Virus record (IMG/VR): IMGVR_UViG_2547132271_000006
Direction: 5' to 3' (one strand)
Source: a virus
Taxonomy: Duplodnaviria; Heunggongvirae; Uroviricota; Caudoviricetes
DNA: 12,376 nt
The position numbers and the translations under genes are program-made. Below are positions 2,518 through 12,376 of this stretch, piece by piece. The stretch's first letter is position 1; each line of letters opens with the position of its first letter. Below the pieces are notes generated by a model. The model did not search any database, was not told the origin of the DNA, and saw nothing but the letters and a program-made list of their open reading frames with translations.

Positions 2518-4659
2518 TTATCCGGCTTCTTCTTCCTCCTGTTCAGGTGCGAAAAGCAGGATATATGCACGTTGCCGGGCGTTATTCTGATGTTTCAGAC
2601 GCGGTGTTCTGCCCTGCCAGCCTCTGCCACTGGTGGGTTTCTTAAGCATCCCGGCATCATGCAGTACCTGCGCCACCGCGTCCTTGTTAAAGCCTCTGGC
2701 AACGTGTTCTTTAAACGGTGCCGGAAGCACGTAAAACAACATCGGGTCATCATACCGTTCGCCCTTGTCCCGGTAGCCCATCAGCTCACTAATGGGAAAA
2801 TCTCGCGGATCATAATCCACGGGTGCAAATTTGCTCATGCCCCAGGCGTTAAGAAATGCCACTGCCTGTTCTGCAATCTGCTGGTGTTCTTTGTTCCCGG
2901 TGCCAAACTCTTTCACCCAGGCATTAAAGCTGCGCTGTATCGCATCCCGGCACCCCTGCGCATCCCATCCGGTGATATGGCCTGACAGCACCAGCGCCGC
3001 TTCCATGATGGCGAATCGCTCCCCGACGCGGTGGACCTGCTCGCCGTAGTTGTCCGGGATAAGTCCGCGCCAGCGTTCCCTTGCGGCTTCTGTGGCCTCC
3101 CTCGCTGCCTGCTGGTGGTCTGCCAGCCAGAGCACCCACTCACGCCCTGCGGTGCCATGATGCGCCATACAGGCCGCTCTGAGCGCATCAGCATGAGCTT
3201 TACCGGACGGCATCCCGTGAAATTCCGTGGCCTTCTCCAGTGGCACATTAAGCAGGCGCACCAGTTGCCCCGCTTTGGGCTTCATGCCTGCGGCTGCAAG
3301 AAAGGTTTCTATGTCCATTTCTCCGGTACTGATGGCGACAGTTCGCCAGCGTTTAAGCTCCCGGTTACCGCCTTCCTTTGCGCCCTGTAGTTTCCCCACA
3401 CCGTTAAACAGCGTATAGGCAGACGTTGCCACGGCGCGGGCATCACTGCCCTGACCAACCTCATCCAGTGGCATCAGGCCGTCATTGTGCGCCTGTGCTT
3501 CGTTAGCAATACCCAGCGCAGTACCGTACCAGGTGAGGCGCAGTAAATCCGGGTTACCGTACAGACTGCTGGCGATGTTTGCCGTGGTGGTTTTCCCGGC
3601 GCTGGACTGCTGGAAGAAATGGACGCCGAAGCCATCCGCACCCACCAGCCCGACCAGTGGCGCGGCAAGTGCTGCCGCCACGCCCAGCATCATGGAAGGA
3701 TTACCCGCCACCAGCGCGGCGACGTTCTCCCGCCAGCTCTGCGCCGTTCCTGCACAGGTGTAACCGGAAGCCGTCGCGCTGTGACCGTAAAACAGGACCT
3801 TCCGGCCCGCCTCGCCGATGATTTCCCCGTCCGGCATGATGTATGCGCCGTGCTGCCATCCGGTCAGGCTGGTGATGTGCCAGAGTTCCCCTGTACCACT
3901 GCGCAACAGGTGATCGGCAAGGATGGCGCGAAAGTTATTTTTAGCCGTGACAGAAAGCCCACCAGCACGTAACCGCGACCAGCCTTCACGCTCGCCAGTA
4001 TCACGCATGGGTATCGCTTCGGTGTGTGCTGTACGCGCGCCTGCGGGCTTCCAGCGCAGAACAAGAAACCGCTCGGACTCATCCGCGCCAATGCCCACCA
4101 CCTCAAGCGGATCACACAACCACTGACCGGGGCGGGTAACTTCCCCGGTCTGCTTATCAATCTTTGGCGTTACCCAGTACAGACCGTCAGGGCGGGCCTC
4201 CACACAGGGGGCCAGCTCATCCACCGGCGCAGGTTTGCCCTCTGCCCGTAGTACCTCTTCCACCAGGCTTTCTTCCCCGCGTTCGTGCTGTTCGCGTATC
4301 CGGTTCAGGTAGTCGCGCCAGTCTTCCGGGTGCTGGTCAGGTATCCCCCTGTATAACTTCGCTTCCTGTACGCCCGCCAGCGCCAGCTTTTCAGCAATGG
4401 CATTAATCTGAATGGGCTTAATATCTCCGGCATGATAGAGGCGGGCGTACTTACACCCGTTATCGATAATGCGCAGGTTCGCCAGGTCTGCCAGTTGCTT
4501 TGGCCCCAGCCAGACAGGCGGCGTTTTATCTGCGGCAATTTTTAATCCCCAGTCCTCTTCCCATGTCTTAGCGTGAGCGAAGGCATCAGCCCCGGCAAAG
4601 ATAACCACCTCAACATGTTTATCTTTCGGTTGATGCTTAAGGTTCGGTGCGTTCTTCAT
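2518..4659 (-). CDS. Replication initiation protein, primase/helicase-like P-loop NTPase (P4 alpha-type / DUF927-like), 713 aa
   Basis: Track ORF; Walker A-like FQQSSAGKTTT, Walker B-like MPLDEVGQGS, acidic C-terminal tail; GAGG RBS 7 nt upstream of ATG; start overlaps upstream ORF stop (ATGA). Confidence 0.7.
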   Translation of the reverse strand: MKNAPNLKHQPKDKHVEVVIFAGADAFAHAKTWEEDWGLKIAADKTPPVWLGPKQLADLANLRIIDNGCKYARLYHAGDIKPIQINAIAEKLALAGVQEAKLYRGIPDQHPEDWRDYLNRIREQHERGEESLVEEVLRAEGKPAPVDELAPCVEARPDGLYWVTPKIDKQTGEVTRPGQWLCDPLEVVGIGADESERFLVLRWKPAGARTAHTEAIPMRDTGEREGWSRLRAGGLSVTAKNNFRAILADHLLRSGTGELWHITSLTGWQHGAYIMPDGEIIGEAGRKVLFYGHSATASGYTCAGTAQSWRENVAALVAGNPSMMLGVAAALAAPLVGLVGADGFGVHFFQQSSAGKTTTANIASSLYGNPDLLRLTWYGTALGIANEAQAHNDGLMPLDEVGQGSDARAVATSAYTLFNGVGKLQGAKEGGNRELKRWRTVAISTGEMDIETFLAAAGMKPKAGQLVRLLNVPLEKATEFHGMPSGKAHADALRAACMAHHGTAGREWVLWLADHQQAAREATEAARERWRGLIPDNYGEQVHRVGERFAIMEAALVLSGHITGWDAQGCRDAIQRSFNAWVKEFGTGNKEHQQIAEQAVAFLNAWGMSKFAPVDYDPRDFPISELMGYRDKGERYDDPMLFYVLPAPFKEHVARGFNKDAVAQVLHDAGMLKKPTSGRGWQGRTPRLKHQNNARQRAYILLFAPEQEEEEAG

Positions 4660-4910: not shown

Positions 4911-5108
4911 TTATGCTGCTGGTGGTGTAACGGTAAATCCGGCTATTTTTGCCGCTTCCAGAAAACCGTCCAGGTTACTGACAAACTCATTCTTCTGTAG
5001 CGTATAGCCGCCTGTGGCAGTGCCTTTTTCCACGCTAACCAGGACAAGCCCGGTGAAGTCCGGTCGCGCCGGAATGGTAACCGTGAAGGTCAGGGAGTGA
5101 TTACGCAT
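4911..5108 (-). CDS. Hypothetical protein, 65 aa (MRNHSLTFTVTIPARPDFTG...)
   Basis: Internal ATG of track ORF 4911..5222, chosen because it is preceded by GGAGG at 6-nt spacing and overlaps the upstream stop codon by 8 nt. Confidence 0.5.
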   Translation of the reverse strand: MRNHSLTFTVTIPARPDFTGLVLVSVEKGTATGGYTLQKNEFVSNLDGFLEAAKIAGFTVTPPAA

Positions 5109-5643
5109 GGTCTGCCTCCACATACGCGACACCCGCCACATCAAGCGCCTGTTTAAAACGGCAAAGCATTTCACGGCGTTCGCGGTACAGGGCCAGCACG
5201 AAGGGATCGAGTGTGGCTTCAATTTCGGCAGGATAACGACGGACGAAAGGCAGAAGGACGACGCCCTGACAGCGGTGTGGCGTGGTGGATTTCACCTGGT
5301 CAGCCAGCATATTCACCAGGTCATGTAACAGCCCGGTAAGCGGCTGGATCATGTCACGGGGCAATGTATCAGCCACCAGCGCCTTTGCCAGCGTGAGGCA
5401 GTATTCCAGCGTCAGGCTTTCATCAGGCCAGTACTCTGACAGATCGGATGCGGTATTGTCCGGCAGGGTAAGCACCGGATCCGCATGGTAGGCCGCTGTC
5501 AGTGCCTCCAGTGATGTGACAAGGTATTTGCACATCGCCCGGTGTTCCGTGCTGCTGCGGTATTCCATCAGCCCGCACACCAGCGCGGCGCACTCACCCG
5601 CCAGATGAAACAGCTCAACTCCTGCGGGGATCGGCTTATTCAT
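5101..5643 (-). CDS. Hypothetical protein, 180 aa (MNKPIPAGVELFHLAGECAALVCGLMEY...)
   Basis: C-terminal portion of track ORF 5101..6273; ATG at 5643 overlaps the stop of the upstream 65-aa gene; protein-like composition unlike the sequence upstream in that frame. Confidence 0.55.
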   Translation of the reverse strand: MNKPIPAGVELFHLAGECAALVCGLMEYRSSTEHRAMCKYLVTSLEALTAAYHADPVLTLPDNTASDLSEYWPDESLTLEYCLTLAKALVADTLPRDMIQPLTGLLHDLVNMLADQVKSTTPHRCQGVVLLPFVRRYPAEIEATLDPFVLALYRERREMLCRFKQALDVAGVAYVEADHA

Positions 5644-5833
5644 GATGCGCCCCCGTAGCGGGCAGGCGACCCGCAAAGAAGCAGACATTTTCCCGTGCAA
5701 GCTGGCGACGGGCTTCACGTTCGCTGGTGGCGGTAATGTGATGGATTGTTGCGGTAATGGTCGGGCAGTCGCGGCGAACGGCAGCGATAAGCCAGACGAA
5801 TTGCGGGCAGAACGGGGTGAGGGTAGTAGCCAT
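5636..5833 (-). CDS. Hypothetical small Cys/His-containing protein, 65 aa (MATTLTPFCPQFVWLIAAVRRDCPTITATIHHITATSEREARRQLARENVCFFAGRLPATGAHHE)
   Basis: Track ORF; strong RBS AAGGAGG 7 nt upstream of ATG; stop overlaps next gene's start. Confidence 0.6.
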   Translation of the reverse strand: MATTLTPFCPQFVWLIAAVRRDCPTITATIHHITATSEREARRQLARENVCFFAGRLPATGAHHE

Positions 5834-5843
5834 AAGGCAGCCT

Positions 5844-5930
5844 CCTTTGTGTTTAAGGAGTCACCGCCTGAGTTCTCACGCTCATAAGGGGCGGTGACGC
5901 TGGCGGGGGTGAGAAAACCGGACACAAAGG
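5844..5930 (-). promoter_or_regulatory. Structured mRNA leader: nested 9-bp inverted repeats able to sequester the RBS of the 65-aa gene
   Basis: Plus-strand CCTTTGTGT (5844-5852) vs ACACAAAGG (5922-5930); inner GTCACCGCC (5860-5868) vs GGCGGTGAC (5890-5898); the outer arm overlaps the AAGGAGG Shine-Dalgarno. Confidence 0.4.
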
Positions 5931-6004
5931 GAACCGGCCAGCCCGAAGGCTGCCCCACCAGCGCCACCATTGATACGGTCTGTTTTGCGGGTATGCGCTG
6001 GCAC

Positions 6005-6037
6005 GACACAAAAAAAGACGCTTTCGGCGTCTGTGTC
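6005..6037 (-). terminator. Intrinsic terminator inside the same-strand gene cluster, between the alpA-side genes and the replication operon
   Basis: Minus strand reads GACACAGACGCCGAAAGCGTCTTTTTTTGTGTC: 6-bp stem AGACGC/GCGTCT, loop CGAAA, T7 tail. Confidence 0.55.
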
Positions 6038-6039
6038 GC

Positions 6040-6273
6040 CTTTGTGTTAAACGGGTTCTCACGCCCGGCTGTGGATTTTGCCACAACGGGAATACTGTAA
6101 ATCCTGTTCAGGGAGGCAGGCAAGCGGTTTTTATTTTTTCCGGTGTCAGGTTTTGACAGGTTGTTGCCAGCCAGGATAACGAAAATATCGCGCTTGTCTG
6201 CGGTTAAAATACGCTTCTGGCTGGTGGCAGGGTGAGCGATGCCCTGACCGTGAAGGTCATTAATTGATTTCAT
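6040..6273 (-). CDS. ORF of unclear status (MKSINDLHGQGIAHPATSQKRILTADKRDIFVILAGNNLSKPDTG...): plausible coding start, 3' end cannot be called
   Basis: ATG at 6273 with AGGA upstream and E. coli-like codon choice in the first ~70 codons, but the frame stays open through the terminator hairpin and on to 5101; possibly a frameshifted pseudogene or an untranslated leader. Confidence 0.25.
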
Positions 6274-9422: not shown

Positions 9423-9499
9423 TGGTCGGCACGAGAGGATTTGAACCTCCGACCCCCGACACCCCATGACGGTGCGCTACCAGGCTGCGCTACGTGCCG
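9423..9499 (-). tRNA. proL: tRNA-Pro (anticodon GGG), integration target of the element
   Basis: Reverse complement reads CGGCACGTAGCGCAGCCTGGTAGCGCACCGTCATGGGGTGTCGGGGGTCGGAGGTTCAAATCCTCTCGTGCCGACCA, a 77-nt cloverleaf-compatible sequence with encoded CCA. Confidence 0.9.
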
Positions 9500-9513
9500 A
9501 CTCGTGGCTGCTT

Positions 9514-9541
9514 ATACTACCGTTTTCCACAACGATTGCAA
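9514..9541 (-). promoter_or_regulatory. Candidate sigma70 promoter of proL
   Basis: Minus-strand TTGCAA (9536-9541), 16-nt spacer, TAGTAT (9514-9519), about 14 nt upstream of the mature tRNA 5' end. Confidence 0.45.
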
Positions 9542-9573
9542 GTAAGATATTTTGCTAACTGATTTATAATTAA

Positions 9574-11334
9574 TCAGTTAGCGATGAAACGCTTCTCGTC
9601 TGTCAGCACTTGCAATAACAAACTTAACTGTGGTTTTTCGTCTTTCACTCTTTCGCCACGTAAGTTGTAAGTGCGGTATTTACCGTTATTGTTCAATACC
9701 AGCGTCATTTTCGGGGTGGTAATTGCCAGCGTATCGTTATCCGCAGCTGTAACCCAGTAATGACGGCGCTCAGGGTTGAACAAATCCTGACCTTGCGAAT
9801 ATTCGCTCGCCGGTGTGCTGACGTGTAGCAGACGTTGCATCAGCGTGGTCATCAGATCGGTATGGTCGGTCAGGGTATTAATTCGCTGTGCCGGTGTGCC
9901 TGGCCAGTGAATCACTAACGGCACCTGAAGATGACCGTGGGACCAGTCAAAGGTTTCTTCCTCTTCGCTCAGCGGAATACCCCGACCGGCAGTAATAATC
10001 ACCACCGTATTGTCCAGCTTGCCGGACGCTTTCAGCGCATCAAGCACGCGGTTAATCTGGTCATCGACATTACCTGCCGCGCGGCTATATTTCCGTGTAA
10101 ATGCTTGCTGGTTGCTGTCGTCAATGTTGGTGCCATTGAAAGATACCCATGAGAACCAGCGATTATCTTCTTGCGCGTAGCGGCTCAGCCAGTTGATCCA
10201 CTGTGTGGCTGTCTGCTCATCGGATTGCGTGCGAACGCTCGGCATTGAGAAGTCTGACAACAATGCCTGACGATACAACGGGCTGGTAAAGCCATCGGAT
10301 GAGAATAATCCCAGTTGATAGCCTTGCTGGTTAAGCGCGGTAATTAATGCCGCAGGCGTACGGGTCGACAGAATGCCGTCCATATAACTTGGCGATATGC
10401 CATAGAACAGGCCAAAGATGCCGTTGTCTGTCGTGTTGCCGGAACTCATATGGCGCGTGAACGAAATATTTTGCTCAGCAAAACCGGCCAGCGCAGGCAT
10501 CTGCTTCTCAAAGCGTGAGTAGTTCAGGCCATCGACAGTAATCAGCAAGACGTTTTGCCCGGTGCCCATATCGCGGTAGCGCAGCTCGCTTAACGGATAC
10601 TGTACGGAAACGGCATCTGGATTGCCTTGCTCAATAAGACGACGTTGATACTCTTGCGCATCAAGCAGACCATGCTTCTCAAGAAAACGTCGCGCCGTCA
10701 TTGGATACGAAAGCGGCAGGTTGGCGCGCTGCATGGTGATTGGGCGATAGAAGTTAGCATCGGCCCAGATATACACCACATGCGAGGCGATAAAGGCGAT
10801 GAATAAGAATGCGGCCAGCGGACGGGCGAAGCGCCGACGACGTGTCAGGCTGCGCAGCTTTTGCCAGCTCCACGTCGCAAACACCAGTTCAAGCAATAAA
10901 ATAACCGGCACGCTGATGAACATCAGCTGCCAGTCGCGCGCCATCTCATTTTCGTCCGGGTTGATAACCAGCTGCCAGACGATGGGATTAAGATGGAGAT
11001 GGAAACGGGTAAAGACTTCGCTATCGATCAGTAATAGCGTCATTCCCGCCGTTGCCAGAATGACGGACAAAAACCTCATCAGCCTCTGGGAGCCGACAAT
11101 AAAGGTCAGCGGGAAGAGGATCAGCAAATAGGTGGCGAACACCAGGAAGCTGAAATGACCGATAATGCTTACGTAGGAATAAATACGACCCGCAAGCGTT
11201 GTCGGCCAGTCGGCGATAAACAGGTAACGGCTGCCAATGACGAGCGAAAGCAGAATATTGAACAGTGCAAACCAGTGCCCCCAACTGACCATCTGGGAGA
11301 CTTTTTCACGGTAGCGCTGACGATGAGTTACCAT
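9574..11334 (-). CDS. yejM: Inner-membrane protein YejM/PbgA (LapC), sulfatase-like periplasmic domain, 586 aa
   Basis: Track ORF; N-terminal multi-pass hydrophobic region followed by a soluble domain; length and sequence as expected for enterobacterial YejM; synteny with yejL/yejK/proL. Confidence 0.9.
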   Translation of the reverse strand: MVTHRQRYREKVSQMVSWGHWFALFNILLSLVIGSRYLFIADWPTTLAGRIYSYVSIIGHFSFLVFATYLLILFPLTFIVGSQRLMRFLSVILATAGMTLLLIDSEVFTRFHLHLNPIVWQLVINPDENEMARDWQLMFISVPVILLLELVFATWSWQKLRSLTRRRRFARPLAAFLFIAFIASHVVYIWADANFYRPITMQRANLPLSYPMTARRFLEKHGLLDAQEYQRRLIEQGNPDAVSVQYPLSELRYRDMGTGQNVLLITVDGLNYSRFEKQMPALAGFAEQNISFTRHMSSGNTTDNGIFGLFYGISPSYMDGILSTRTPAALITALNQQGYQLGLFSSDGFTSPLYRQALLSDFSMPSVRTQSDEQTATQWINWLSRYAQEDNRWFSWVSFNGTNIDDSNQQAFTRKYSRAAGNVDDQINRVLDALKASGKLDNTVVIITAGRGIPLSEEEETFDWSHGHLQVPLVIHWPGTPAQRINTLTDHTDLMTTLMQRLLHVSTPASEYSQGQDLFNPERRHYWVTAADNDTLAITTPKMTLVLNNNGKYRTYNLRGERVKDEKPQLSLLLQVLTDEKRFIAN

Positions 11335-11353
11335 AACCTGTTATCTGTTTCCC

Positions 11354-11581
11354 TTAGTGCGCTTTGTCTTCGTTGATAGAGGACTGTAAGGCGCGGGCAA
11401 AAGAGTTGGCAATCGCCTGGCGCTGAGCCGGGGCAATGCTGGTGTTGATAAGGTTGGTGACCATATTGCCTAACACCATCAGGGAAAGGTCGGTCGGAGC
11501 CTTATGTTTTTCCAGTACGTTGAGCAGCTCTGCGAGCAATTGTTCAACCTGTTCATCACTGTAGCGGGAAATTTGTGGCAT
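11354..11581 (-). CDS. yejL: UPF0352 family protein YejL, 75 aa
   Basis: Track ORF; 19-bp gap to yejM; conserved position. Confidence 0.85.
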
Positions 11582-11762
11582 AAATCGAAATCAGTTAGTT
11601 GATGAAAGGGCAACATATTACCGTAGCAACGGTTTTTTTTCTGCTTTTTTATACTTTAAATCATTCGCGTTACGCCACCTTCTGTAAAATGACCGCCATC
11701 TTTTATTGCGTCGCTTAACCGGCGGTGGTTGAATACCGCCCGGTCTTAAAGGAGAGTTTATC

Positions 11763-12376
11763 ATGAGTCTGGATATCAACCAGATTGCTCTGCACCAGCT
11801 TATCAAGCGTGATGAGCAGAACCTTGAGCTGGTGCTGCGCGATTCATTGCTGGAACCGACGGAAACCGTCGTTGAGATGGTGGCAGAGCTGCATCGTGTC
11901 TATAGCGCCAAGAACAAAGCCTACGGTTTGTTTAGCGAGGAGAGTGAGCTGGCGCAGACGCTGCGCTTACAGCGTCAGGGCGAAGAAGACTTTCTGGCAT
12001 TTAGCCGGGCAGCAACTGGTCGCCTGCGTGACGAACTGGCGAAATATCCTTTTGCTGACGGCGGCTTCGTGCTGTTTTGTCACTATCGCTATCTGGCGGT
12101 TGAGTATTTGCTGATTTGCGTACTGAACAATTTAAGCAGTATGCGCGTTAACGAAAACCTCGACATCAACCCGACCCATTATCTCGATATTAATCATGCG
12201 GATATTGTTGCGCGTATCGATTTAACCGAATGGGAAACCAATCCAGAATCGACCCGTTATCTTACTTTCCTGAAAGGGCGGGTAGGGCGCAAAGTGGCTG
12301 ATTTCTTTATGGACTTCCTCGGTGCCAGCGAAGGGTTGAATGCGAAAGCGCAAAACCGTGGTCTGTTACAGGCGGG
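11763..12376 (+). CDS. yejK: Nucleoid-associated protein YejK (NdpA), N-terminal ~204 codons; runs off the window end
   Basis: ATG at 11763 preceded by AGGAG; open frame to the window end ([32 protein letters not shown]...); divergent from yejL. Confidence 0.85.

Follow-up and report, generated by a model that had tools for sequence, protein, structure and literature searches.

A probable P4/P1-type antisense-RNA immunity cassette with its own pairing sequence in a P4-related element at proL of a non-coli Escherichia

Genes and RNAs of the cassette

The 12.4-kb stretch of DNA analysed here (the window) comes from a P4-related integrative element at tRNA-Pro(GGG)/proL of a non-coli Escherichia, and the cassette described below is very probably the immunity (lysogeny-control) region of that element. 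Integrase, AlpA and primase/helicase genes were found in the window by profile searches. The primase/helicase (2518-4659, minus strand), which stands at the end of the operon that the cassette would control, is a 713-aa protein that matched Pfam DUF927 with 165.6 bits and PHROG 1139 'DNA primase' with 453 bits; iterons of the repeat families D2, D7 and D9 lie just past it at 2275-2434. P4-like satellites share a core set of sid, psu, delta, epsilon, alpha, alpA and an integrase gene. No ORF corresponding to sid, psu or delta by family match or by size was found at 744-2518 or elsewhere in the window. The element is a non-canonical P4, without sid-, psu- or delta-sized genes in the window and with a DUF927-type primase/helicase; because of this non-P4 gene set and replication protein, its regulatory output could differ from that of P4. 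No attR, searched for as a direct repeat of the tRNA 3' end, was found within the 12.4-kb window.

All features of the cassette lie on the minus strand. Transcription would begin at a PLE-type promoter (6094-6123) with a -35 element TTGCCT at 6123-6118, an 18-nt spacer and a -10 element TACAGT at 6099-6094. This promoter was recognized by P4 homology and conservation: its -10 aligns with the annotated -10 of P4 (1483-1488 of P4 locus L001), isrK starts 7 nt 3' of it, and the pattern TTGNNN-N18-TAYAGT occurred at constant spacing to the a1 target site in 140 of 187 related loci, with a promoter-like match in 141 of the 187. A generic sigma-70 scan upstream of isrK called no promoter, because only 8 of the 12 positions match.

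The leader RNA that follows, isrK or P4 seqA (6011-6087), consists of three hairpins, the last of which is an intrinsic terminator. It matched Rfam RF01394 over the full model (1-77 of 77, at 6087-6011, minus strand) with 68.2 bits (gathering score 50), and the same family matched P4 at L001 1495-1572. Hfq binding is part of the RF01394 family name, and a Hfq-independent effect has been reported for the IsrK of Gifsy-1 (PMC4825925). In a local search RF03163 (c4-a1b1) scored 46.4 bits at 6100-6048 (E = 9e-11), which is 0.3 below its gathering score of 46.7; this shortfall is a borderline technical miss, and a relative (L198) passes with 47.4 bits. When isrK was folded alone, the target site a1 lay in the loop of hairpin 2 and the target site b1 was single-stranded. 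The terminator (6010-6032) has its stem-loop at 6032-6016 and its U-run at 6016-6010, just 3' of the upstream copy of a repeated 9-mer, where a sequence-only reading of this DNA had placed it. It is conserved in P4, where we take it to match t1 in position. A T-run of at least 6 followed b1 in 169 of 171 loci, 165 of which also had a stem of at least 5 bp. The terminator tail UUUGUGU also matches b1, but we rejected this pairing: P4 shares the tail, has another b1 and lacks the match, which is allele-specific and probably coincidental.

Further downstream lies the 88-nt C4 RNA, the CI antisense RNA of P4 (5887-5974). It matched Rfam RF01695 with 82.2 bits (gathering score 45; model 1-87 of 87, at 5974-5887, minus strand), and both the C4 and the isrK family of Rfam also match the immunity region of P4. 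C4 is built of a 17-bp closing stem (5969-5953/5908-5892), hairpin 1 (5952-5939) and hairpin 2 (5938-5917), the last with a 12-nt loop. Folded alone, its minimum-energy structure (-49.5 kcal/mol) was the Rfam structure, with the middle pairing segment b' exposed in the 12-nt loop. Across 118 sequences pairing of the closing stem held at 99.2%, and both partners vary in 7 of its pairs; for hairpins 1 and 2 covariation is uninformative, both being constant by the search pattern.

The first translated gene 3' of these RNAs (5636-5833) encodes a 65-aa Icd/Kil-like protein, which we call kil. It matched NCBIfam NF033153, 'host cell division inhibitor Icd-like', with 71.1 bits against a cutoff of 25, and is 48% identical to the corresponding 65-aa frame of P4 (the final 65 codons of the former 'ash' CDS); both proteins start with MATTLTP. 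The next gene (5643-5101) likely has its own start at ATG 5643, and profile searches with this ORF gave no family match and no ant-like match. A 390-codon open frame (5101-6273) runs through the promoter, isrK, C4 and kil into this next gene and is +1 relative to kil, whose own frame is closed by a TGA located 30 nt before its ATG. Residues 59-149 of the long frame matched Pfam Phage_ASH with 75.6 bits, and PHROG 6928 combines Ash and Kil parts in a single profile. Across the family, leader lengths keep the reading frame, and a sister element does so despite indels of +4 and -1. Forti et al. reportedly found in 1999 that the eta frame of P4 opens upstream of PLE, shares the phase of kil and terminates at its stop codon. 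The 390-codon frame may be the equivalent of eta; an eta-type frame is in phase with kil in 153 of 171 relatives, whereas in this element it is not.

Two complementary triples and their covariation

The sequence-only reading had pointed to three complementary 9-mers, all of which were confirmed at their exact positions. The 12.4-kb window holds three copies of ACACAAAGG and no more: two minus-strand copies, at 6047-6039 and 5852-5844, and one plus-strand copy at 5922-5930, which on the minus strand (5930-5922) reads CCTTTGTGT. We refer to the upstream 9-mer (6039-6047) as target b1 and to the downstream one (5844-5852), the P4 seqC core, as target b2, both assigned by exact match and covariation. 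The middle 9-mer b' (CCUUUGUGU, 5922-5930), the P4 seqB core, was placed in the loop of C4 hairpin 2 by Rfam, repeat search and fold. Dinucleotide shuffles gave a mean of 0.15 exact matches, with three or more in 0 of 200; this exact-match test superseded a chance test that allowed one mismatch, under which 2.9 matches were expected. Complementarity of b' is 9/9 at both target sites, and its predicted duplex energy was about -13 kcal/mol with its own targets versus -4 to -7 kcal/mol with the P4 targets. The downstream 9-mer does overlap a Shine-Dalgarno sequence, as had been claimed (AAGGAGG at 5847-5841; the start codon is the ATG at 5833).

In addition, the repeat search revealed a second complementary triple, GUGAGAA (6062-6056), UUCUCAC (5915-5909) and GUGAGAA (5879-5873), with 7/7 complementarity at both target sites. 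By repeat search and fold, a1 (6056-6062) lies in the loop of isrK hairpin 2. The middle segment a' (5909-5915; Rfam and repeat search) lies in the unpaired stretch that links hairpin 2 to the closing stem of C4, and the second target a2 (5873-5879) is further marked by its covariation with a'. The sequence-only reading had included neither this triple nor the placement of the middle 9-mer in a hairpin loop, the upstream promoter or the 390-codon frame.

We surveyed 193 non-redundant related loci, a sample that carries an ascertainment bias since they were found by a fixed 24-nt pattern. They held 46 loop (b') alleles and 15 a' alleles, one b' allele occurring with up to 5 different a' alleles. 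A perfect complement, 7 nt or longer, to a locus's own loop was present upstream in 171 and downstream in 176 of the 193, at fixed positions, while foreign loops found such a complement in only 3.2% (upstream) and 2.3% (downstream) of comparisons. Similarly, a 7-nt complement to a locus's own a' stood at fixed positions upstream in 190/193 and downstream in 192/193. Among 110 distinct sequences, 95.7% of b'-b1 cells were paired in register versus 25-48% out of register, with 3-5 pair types per variable position. The b'-b2 helix was 94.5% paired, with 8/8 pairs changing on both sides, and the a'-a2 helix 95.3% paired, with 6/7 pairs doing so; slid controls for the whole counted structure, these two helices included, gave 31-51%. 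The Shine-Dalgarno motif adjoins b2 in 175 of 176 loci. Both site sets thus covary three ways, and all three 9-mers covary in homologues, the point on which the sequence-only reading had staked its proposal.

The sister element L245 is 96.7% identical overall, encodes an identical Kil protein and carries the b-set CCCUAUGG/CCAUAGGG/CCCUAUGG. The window and L245 differ most in the b-site bins, with up to 15 differences per 100 nt versus about 3 per 100 elsewhere. The combination found in the window, loop UUCCCUUUGUGU with a' UUUCUCA, was unique among the 193 sampled loci and absent from IMG/VR, where the exact loop allele had 0 matches. Of elements co-resident in one genome, 0 of 9 scorable pairs shared both alleles, against an expected 2.6%, a sample too small to give this comparison any power. 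The reassorted 46 b' and 15 a' alleles, together with the concerted switch of the b sites in L245, form a resource on how satellites avoid cross-repression, the principle of such immunity switching being already established.

Probable trans antisense control and alternative readings

We conclude that this is very probably an antisense-RNA immunity cassette of the P4/P1 type, in the form of a new allele with its own pairing sequence. From the homology with P4 and P1, we would expect control to proceed as follows. The constitutive PLE-type promoter (6123-6094) would transcribe the leader, the first 77 nt of which would make up the isrK/seqA RNA with a1 and b1, ending at the intrinsic terminator. 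Read-through transcripts would enter the 88-nt C4/CI RNA, which would be excised and accumulate, with RNase P making its 5' end. C4 would then pair in trans with a1/b1 and a2/b2 of new leaders, either from its own element or from an incoming element of the same specificity. Pairing at a2/b2 would mask the ribosome-binding site of kil, and pairing at either site would favour early termination, both at the isrK terminator and, when the leader is no longer being translated, at Rho-dependent sites further down. The replication genes (primase/helicase, 4659-2518) would stay silent.

The proposal that three complementary segments control the downstream replication operon at the RNA level was right, as covariation and P4 homology indicate, and the comparison with seqA/seqB/seqC of P4 was apt, the cassette being a direct homologue of P4 immunity. 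It is not, as had been suggested, an analogous and undescribed switch, given the homology with P4, the Rfam matches to isrK and C4 and a published equation of these RNAs with seqA/CI (PMC3632133). The further idea of a cis-acting choice between two hairpins stands in part: the primary mode is probably trans antisense, while the cis fold, a nested helix and the precedent of Gifsy-1 speak for cis pairing, a layer that has already been described in this family, in Gifsy-1.

The nested 9-bp inverted repeat, GTCACCGCC/GGCGGTGAC, was found exactly where it had been reported, at 5898-5890/5868-5860. Repeat search and covariation identify it as an alternative hairpin (5860-5898) in which GUCACCGCC (5898-5890) pairs with GGCGGUGAC (5868-5860) and a2 occupies the apical loop. 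As GUCACCGCC comprises the end of the C4 closing stem and its tail, this helix and the outer part of the closing stem cannot form together. Across 118 sequences its 9 pairs were 96% paired and 7 change on both sides, versus 19-50% in slid controls. Pair counting and slid controls replaced a first control in which arms were swapped between loci, which was uninformative because similar arms are common to most loci. The minimum-energy fold of the 266-nt leader (-117.8 kcal/mol, z = -6.25) also contained the nested helix; in it a1/b1 paired with a'/b' in cis and the C4 fold was lost. One further match, between AGGCUGCC (5843-5836, after the Shine-Dalgarno sequence) and the 5' arm of C4 hairpin 1, was not counted as part of the system, because the downstream segment varies and hairpin 1, which is constant by the search pattern, does not.

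One alternative is a purely cis leader switch, in which the middle 9-mer pairs with either the upstream or the downstream copy, choosing between termination and occlusion of the ribosome-binding site with no RNA acting in trans. Its support comes from the cis pairing of a1/b1 with a'/b' in the leader fold, from the covarying helix that competes with the outer closing stem, and from structure A of Gifsy-1 (IsrK with the C4-like segment), which is backed by compensatory mutations (PMC4825925). Nevertheless, the middle element is a full-length C4 with its own covarying closing stem and its own minimum-energy fold, an autonomous structure of the kind that an excised, stable RNA should have; P4 CI is itself a processed antisense RNA (PMC4825925). 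The pairing sequences, moreover, are both hypervariable and reassorted, with 46 b' and 15 a' alleles. Such diversification of specificity would be expected of an RNA that tells elements apart in trans, whereas a private cis helix needs no difference. We regard a switch acting in cis alone as improbable. An even smaller, negligible probability falls to the reading of the repeats as chance or as a by-product of an Ash/eta-type coding frame. The 390-codon frame with its Phage_ASH match and the frame-keeping leader lengths would suit such an origin, but there are three exact copies, a number reached in 0 of 200 shuffles, the covariance models that score structure match strongly, and the three sites covary so as to keep complementarity and not amino acids. 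Coding constraint may coexist with RNA constraint; complementary covariation does not come from coding, and the covariation data refute this origin.

A positive control of the IsrK type deserves more weight than either of these but is still unlikely. Here the short isrK RNA would itself be the trans regulator, pairing with the C4 segment or with free C4 and turning downstream translation on; the triple would serve as an activation or anti-antisense circuit, in place of repression or alongside it. The full-length Rfam match to isrK carries both a1 and b1, complementary to C4, and because its terminator is intact a short RNA is expected. Hershko-Shalev et al. described trans activation by the short IsrK and discussed titration involving the C4-like STnc1160 (PMC4825925), and Barquist et al. 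found an IsrK-like element to be required in P4-like prophages of S. Typhi. Against this, the nucleotide homology of the whole cassette, kil included, is to P4, where the documented outcome is repression by CI (PMC4825925), and the Gifsy-1 output genes orf45 and anrP are absent, Icd/Kil-like and replication genes standing in their place. Such control is compatible with trans repression by C4 as an added layer.

The cis pairings, too, may be a further layer on trans antisense control. A bolder version, which we put forward tentatively and think rather doubtful, is that besides trans control there is a conserved cis switch in the leader, undescribed for P4-type elements, with an override by ribosomes on the long frame. 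Folding or excision of C4 would exclude the display of a2/b2 and the ribosome-binding site on the same transcript, and ribosomes arriving from an upstream promoter and reading 6273-5101 could override this switch. If true, one stretch of DNA would hold two small RNAs and two overlapping reading frames.

For annotation, these results favour isrK/seqA RNA, C4/CI antisense RNA and Icd/Kil-like gene over riboswitch-like, 'Ash' or 'transcriptional repressor'. The cassette would mark where lysogeny and immunity are controlled in a small P4-related island at proL, and its sequence predicts the immunity specificity of the island.

Comparison with P4, P1/P7 and Gifsy-1

In P4, the CI RNA is processed (by RNase P and PNPase) and acts in trans, with termination at t1, t4 and timm. 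Direct alignment of the window with P4 (X02534) from the -10 of PLE to the end of kil gave 73% column identity. The order is the same in both: PLE, seqA/t1, cI/seqB, seqC and a 65-aa kil, with a primase-type replication gene downstream. The a-set GUGAGAA/UUCUCAC is identical and so is the terminator after seqA, whereas P4 has UUCACAGG/CCUGUGAA/UUCACAGG at the positions of ACACAAAGG/CCUUUGUGU/ACACAAAGG in the window. Because the b-set differs, the predicted immunity specificity differs from that of P4. The nested helix, GCUAUCGCC/GGCGAUAGC in P4 versus GUCACCGCC/GGCGGUGAC here, shows compensatory changes. P4 carries an extra 68 nt, inserted between seqA and cI. In P4 the RNA-spanning frame joins kil in phase, as eta, while in the window's clade it is shifted one base relative to kil.

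Mutually compensating changes in seqA, seqB and seqC set immunity specificity in the retronphage phiR73 and other heteroimmune P4-like elements, as Sabbattini et al. reportedly found (Virology, 1996). The same principle is seen between the window and P4 and between the window and L245, the allele of the window being a different one. The P4 literature describes CI as an RNA processed from the leader that acts as an antisense in trans, with termination through pairing at seqA and seqC (PMC4825925), and isrK and C4 have been equated with P4 seqA and CI RNA (PMC3632133).

The cassette also resembles the immI region of P1 and P7, in that two target pairs flank the RNA gene on one transcript and an Icd-family gene follows whose ribosome-binding site is overlapped by b2. 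That region comprises c4, the a1/b1 and a2/b2 targets, icd and ant, as reportedly described by Citron and Schuster in 1990 and Heinrich et al. in 1995. DNA matches to the cassette segment were found in the P1-like phages RCS47 and D6. In contrast to P1/P7, where ant follows icd, the window has no ant, and its output is the replication operon, as in P4.

Gifsy-1 (IsrK - orf45/STnc1160 - anrP) likewise has a short, terminated isrK and a read-through transcript with a processed C4-like RNA, and its cis structures A and B of IsrK were shown experimentally (Hershko-Shalev et al., 2016; PMC4825925). The output of Gifsy-1, a lambdoid prophage, is an antirepressor and a Q-like antiterminator, whereas that of the window is the Icd/Kil-like gene and the replication genes.

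Sequence elements and identity of the cassette

The three complementary 9-mers, the terminator, the Shine-Dalgarno overlap and the nested repeat, from which the sequence-only reading had proposed a cis-acting RNA switch analogous to P4 seqA/seqB/seqC, were all confirmed in place. On the minus strand, ACACAAAGG occurs upstream as b1 (6047-6039, part of seqA) and downstream as b2 (5852-5844, part of seqC), and its complement CCTTTGTGT lies between them as b' (5930-5922, part of seqB), all three as exact matches. These are the only three exact occurrences of the 9-mer in the whole window; dinucleotide shuffles averaged 0.15, and a count of three was not reached in any of 200. A terminator-like hairpin (6032-6016, minus) followed by a run of seven T (6016-6010) lies 3' of b1, and b2 overlaps the Shine-Dalgarno sequence AAGGAGG (5847-5841, minus), eight bases 5' of the ATG of kil, the 65-codon Icd/Kil-like ORF (5833-5636, minus). 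The nested 9-bp inverted repeat is exact (5898-5890/5868-5860, minus). In addition, we found a second complementary triple on the minus strand that had been overlooked, consisting of a1 (GUGAGAA, 6062-6056), a' (UUCUCAC, 5915-5909) and a2 (GUGAGAA, 5879-5873).

An Rfam scan of the window identified two full-length RNAs on the minus strand, isrK (RF01394, 6087-6011, 68.2 bits vs a gathering score of 50) and the C4 antisense RNA (RF01695, 5974-5887, 82.2 bits vs 45); a permissive scan added RF03163, 'a1, b1 targets of C4 antisense RNA' (6100-6048), whose 46.4 bits are 0.3 under the threshold. Searching phage records with the DNA segment returned the P4 essential region (X02534) and P1-like phages. 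The P4 alignment begins at the annotated PLE -10 hexamer and spans two isrK hairpins, the terminator, the CI/C4 RNA, the Shine-Dalgarno sequence and the 65-aa protein, which starts with MATTLTP in both and is 48% identical between the window and P4. The protein of the window also matches the NCBIfam model 'host cell division inhibitor Icd-like' (71 bits). Furthermore, P4 itself is matched by Rfam isrK and C4 at the expected positions, and isrK/C4 have been equated with P4 seqA/CI RNA (Barquist et al., PMC3632133). Because of these Rfam matches, the P4 alignment and this equivalence, the region is, as judged from sequence, a P4-type immunity cassette.

Two further short matches were observed. 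AGGCUGCC (5836-5843, between the Shine-Dalgarno sequence and the kil ATG) is the exact complement of GGCAGCCU (5947-5954, 5' arm of C4 hairpin 1); hairpin 1 was held fixed by the search pattern of our survey, so the survey is uninformative on covariation of this pair. The terminator tail UUUGUGUC (6005-6012) repeats part of b' and can pair with b1 (ACACAAA, 6039-6047). The tail-b1 match seems specific to the allele of the window, because in P4 an identical tail is combined with another b1.

Covariation of the pairing triples

To survey related loci, we used a 24-nt pattern made up of C4 hairpin 1 and the hairpin 2 stem, which yielded 120 genome loci and 120 viral contigs; in 32 of 243 matches, what follows hairpin 1 departed from the hairpin 2 pattern. 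The genome loci were for the most part from Enterobacterales, with some from Ralstonia, Cupriavidus and others, and 193 loci with full flanks remained after duplicate removal. These contained 46 loop sequences and 15 a' segments, variously combined, and every allele came with its own matching site pair. In 171 of the 193 loci, the locus's own loop had a perfectly complementary stretch of 7 nt or more on the upstream side, and in 176 it had one on the downstream side, whereas the loops of other loci satisfied the same criterion in only 3.2% (upstream) and 2.3% (downstream) of comparisons. The complement of the own a' segment was present upstream in 190 and downstream in 192 of the 193 loci. Target distances from C4 were fixed, with a1 at about -133, b1 at about -117, a2 at about +74 and b2 at about +105. 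The pairing allele of the window was absent from the other 192 loci and from IMG/VR.

Pairs were counted in alignment A2 (118 distinct sequences), where slid controls, which cover the whole structure counted together, gave 31-51% paired cells. Against this, b'-b2 (8 pairs, all 8 changed on both sides) was paired in 94.5% of cells, a'-a2 (7 pairs, 6 changed on both sides) in 95.3% and the C4 closing stem (17 pairs, 7 changed on both sides) in 99.2%. For b'-b1 (8 pairs, 110 sequences), 95.7% were paired vs 25-48% in other registers, and each variable position showed 3-5 pair types. The clearest case comes from the sister element L245 (GCA_017566905.1), which over 6.2 kb shares 96.7% identity with the window and encodes an identical Kil protein. 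Its b1/b'/b2 read CCCUAUGG / CCAUAGGG / CCCUAUGG, all three changed together, while its a-set is the same as in the window (L245 2744-3004 vs window 6087-5830). The two elements differ most in the pair of bins holding b sites, at up to 15 differences per 100 nt vs about 3 per 100 elsewhere, a 4-5 fold peak. The 9-mers thus covary three ways across homologues and had been switched as a set in L245, so the lack of conservation or covariation that would have spoken against the sequence-only reading was not seen.

The exact 24-nt C4 core was also seen in Ralstonia, Cupriavidus, Aquitalea, Dyella, Thiothrix and Competibacteraceae, and in assemblies labelled Vagococcus or Clostridiales, which are likely contaminated; the survey loci concerned are L006, L019, L021, L026, L036, L040, L041, L057, L059, L062, L074, L094, L096 and L114.

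The long frame and the surrounding island

A 390-codon frame (6273-5101, minus) is open over the promoter, isrK, C4 and kil (in +1) and on into the next gene. Its residues 59-149, the translation of isrK and C4, match Pfam Phage_ASH (75.6 bits), and PHROG 6928 holds an RNA-region part and a Kil part within one profile. In most relatives the corresponding frame shares the phase of kil; 153 of 171 have a kil frame without stops as far back as isrK, and the a1-to-ATG distance equals 2 mod 3 in 148 of 171 loci, over 11 length classes. This indicates a coding constraint added to the RNA constraint. In P4, eta is translated from the upstream PLL promoter, which makes such transcripts insensitive to immunity, and the frame conservation fits this precedent. 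The frame is kept in L245 despite +4 and -1 indels. The window and its relative L198 are among a minority in which it is off by one base; in these two it runs through kil and fuses to the next gene. In L243 (GCA_001630835.1, about 2800), an otherwise identical copy, 8 T vs 7 in the isrK terminator run break the long frame; the extra T may reflect true slippage or an error in sequencing the homopolymer.

Existing protein labels (repressor, Ash, Icd-like) sit largely on RNA genes. PHROGs 1743 and 6928 put 'transcriptional repressor' on the Kil/Icd-like protein (5636-5833) and the translated RNA region (5827-6273), 'Ash protein' is the Pfam name for the latter (5827-6273), and PGAP annotates a 217-aa 'Icd-like protein' over isrK and C4 in E. 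coli locus L002 (5807-6460).

The island adjoins tRNA-Pro(GGG) (9499-9423) and carries, in this order along the minus strand, an integrase gene (9216-7975), an int-alpA RNA 3' of it (7877-7810; Rfam 43.1 bits vs a gathering score of 35.8), a 243-aa ORF without a family match (7797-7066), AlpA (6946-6716), a 143-aa ORF with no assigned family between AlpA and the RNA cassette, three small ORFs after the Icd/Kil-like gene, one with a DUF4222 domain, and a 713-aa DUF927 primase/helicase (4659-2518). The int-alpA RNA was found in L245 too. At the site of the 243-aa ORF, between integrase and alpA, which may be a variable cargo position, the gene caller gives L243 a 142-aa ORF (1040-1468) over the first part of the span, in a copy otherwise identical. 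Short direct and inverted repeats, GTTGTCCCA / TGGGACAAC with 21-nt spacing, directly follow the primase/helicase gene (2275-2434) and probably represent origin iterons of the element. A motif of about 31 nt (GTGCGCAAAAAC...) occurs three times at 1205-1700, with copies about 180-200 nt apart, alongside a 23-nt repeat pair; this stretch lies between the island and the gene for the narP-like response regulator (67-744). The element contains no genes of sid, psu or delta size, and a search of the window for an attR copy of the tRNA end found none; the element is P4-related in its control and replication part and cannot be called a canonical P4-like satellite. The host flanks comprise yejK-yejL-yejM with tRNA-Pro(GGG) (9423-12376) and the NarP-like regulator (67-744). 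Because the yejM-yejL-yejK flank shows 94.5% identity to each of the 5426 complete E. coli genomes, the host is, on this evidence, an Escherichia species distinct from E. coli proper. At least three NCBI assemblies, as well as several sequencing runs, contain the same element.

Proposed pairing in trans and possible pairing in cis, compared with P4 and Gifsy-1

On its own, the 88-nt C4 segment folded precisely as in the Rfam model (-49.5 kcal/mol), which places b' in the 12-nt loop of hairpin 2 and leaves a' unpaired. When isrK was folded alone, three hairpins formed; the loop of the second contains a1, and b1 is single-stranded immediately 5' of the terminator. These predicted folds are characteristic of an antisense RNA with kissing targets. 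In P4 and P1, RNase P generates the 5' end of the antisense RNA. Termination in P4 occurs at t1 (the terminator 3' of seqA), t4 and the Rho-dependent timm, and a block of kil translation exposes the transcript to Rho. The P4 CI RNA is made by processing of the untranslated leader and pairs with seqA and seqC, causing premature termination that turns the replication genes off (Hershko-Shalev et al., PMC4825925). By analogy, we infer that C4 of this element would be processed from the leader and pair with its targets in trans, leading to premature termination. The anatomy, homology and covariation are observed in the cassette itself, and we consider it highly probable that the P4-type identity and general mechanism hold here.

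A switch acting in cis as the sole mechanism is unlikely, because selection acts on the C4 fold itself and because the pairing sequences have diversified and been reshuffled among elements, as would make sense for discrimination in trans. Pairing in cis nevertheless has points in its favour. When the whole 266-nt leader was folded, the minimum-energy structure had a1/b1 paired with a'/b' in cis, and the nested helix (5898-5890/5868-5860), where P4 has GCUAUCGCC/GGCGAUAGC, is conserved (9 pairs, 7 changed on both sides, 96% of cells paired vs 19-50% in slid controls). This helix takes the end of the C4 closing stem, and so competes with it, and puts a2 in an apical loop. In Gifsy-1, cis pairing of the isrK middle segment with a downstream C4-like segment, giving an inactive structure A as opposed to an active structure B, was proven by compensatory mutations (Hershko-Shalev et al., PMC4825925). 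Because of the cis fold, the conserved helix and this precedent, alternative structures in cis and a layer with isrK as regulator may operate here too. The switch logic and P4 analogy of the sequence-only reading stand, but 'undescribed' and 'cis-acting' are not supported.

Predicted duplexes of b' reached about -13 kcal/mol with its own targets vs -4 to -7 with those of P4. Because its own duplexes are the stronger, the element should be heteroimmune to P4 at the b site, with the a site in common. The system belongs to the known P4 CI / P1 c4 antisense immunity cassettes with an isrK leader, and what remains new is a competing helix that is conserved, a long frame that is shifted, and how far the alleles have diversified.
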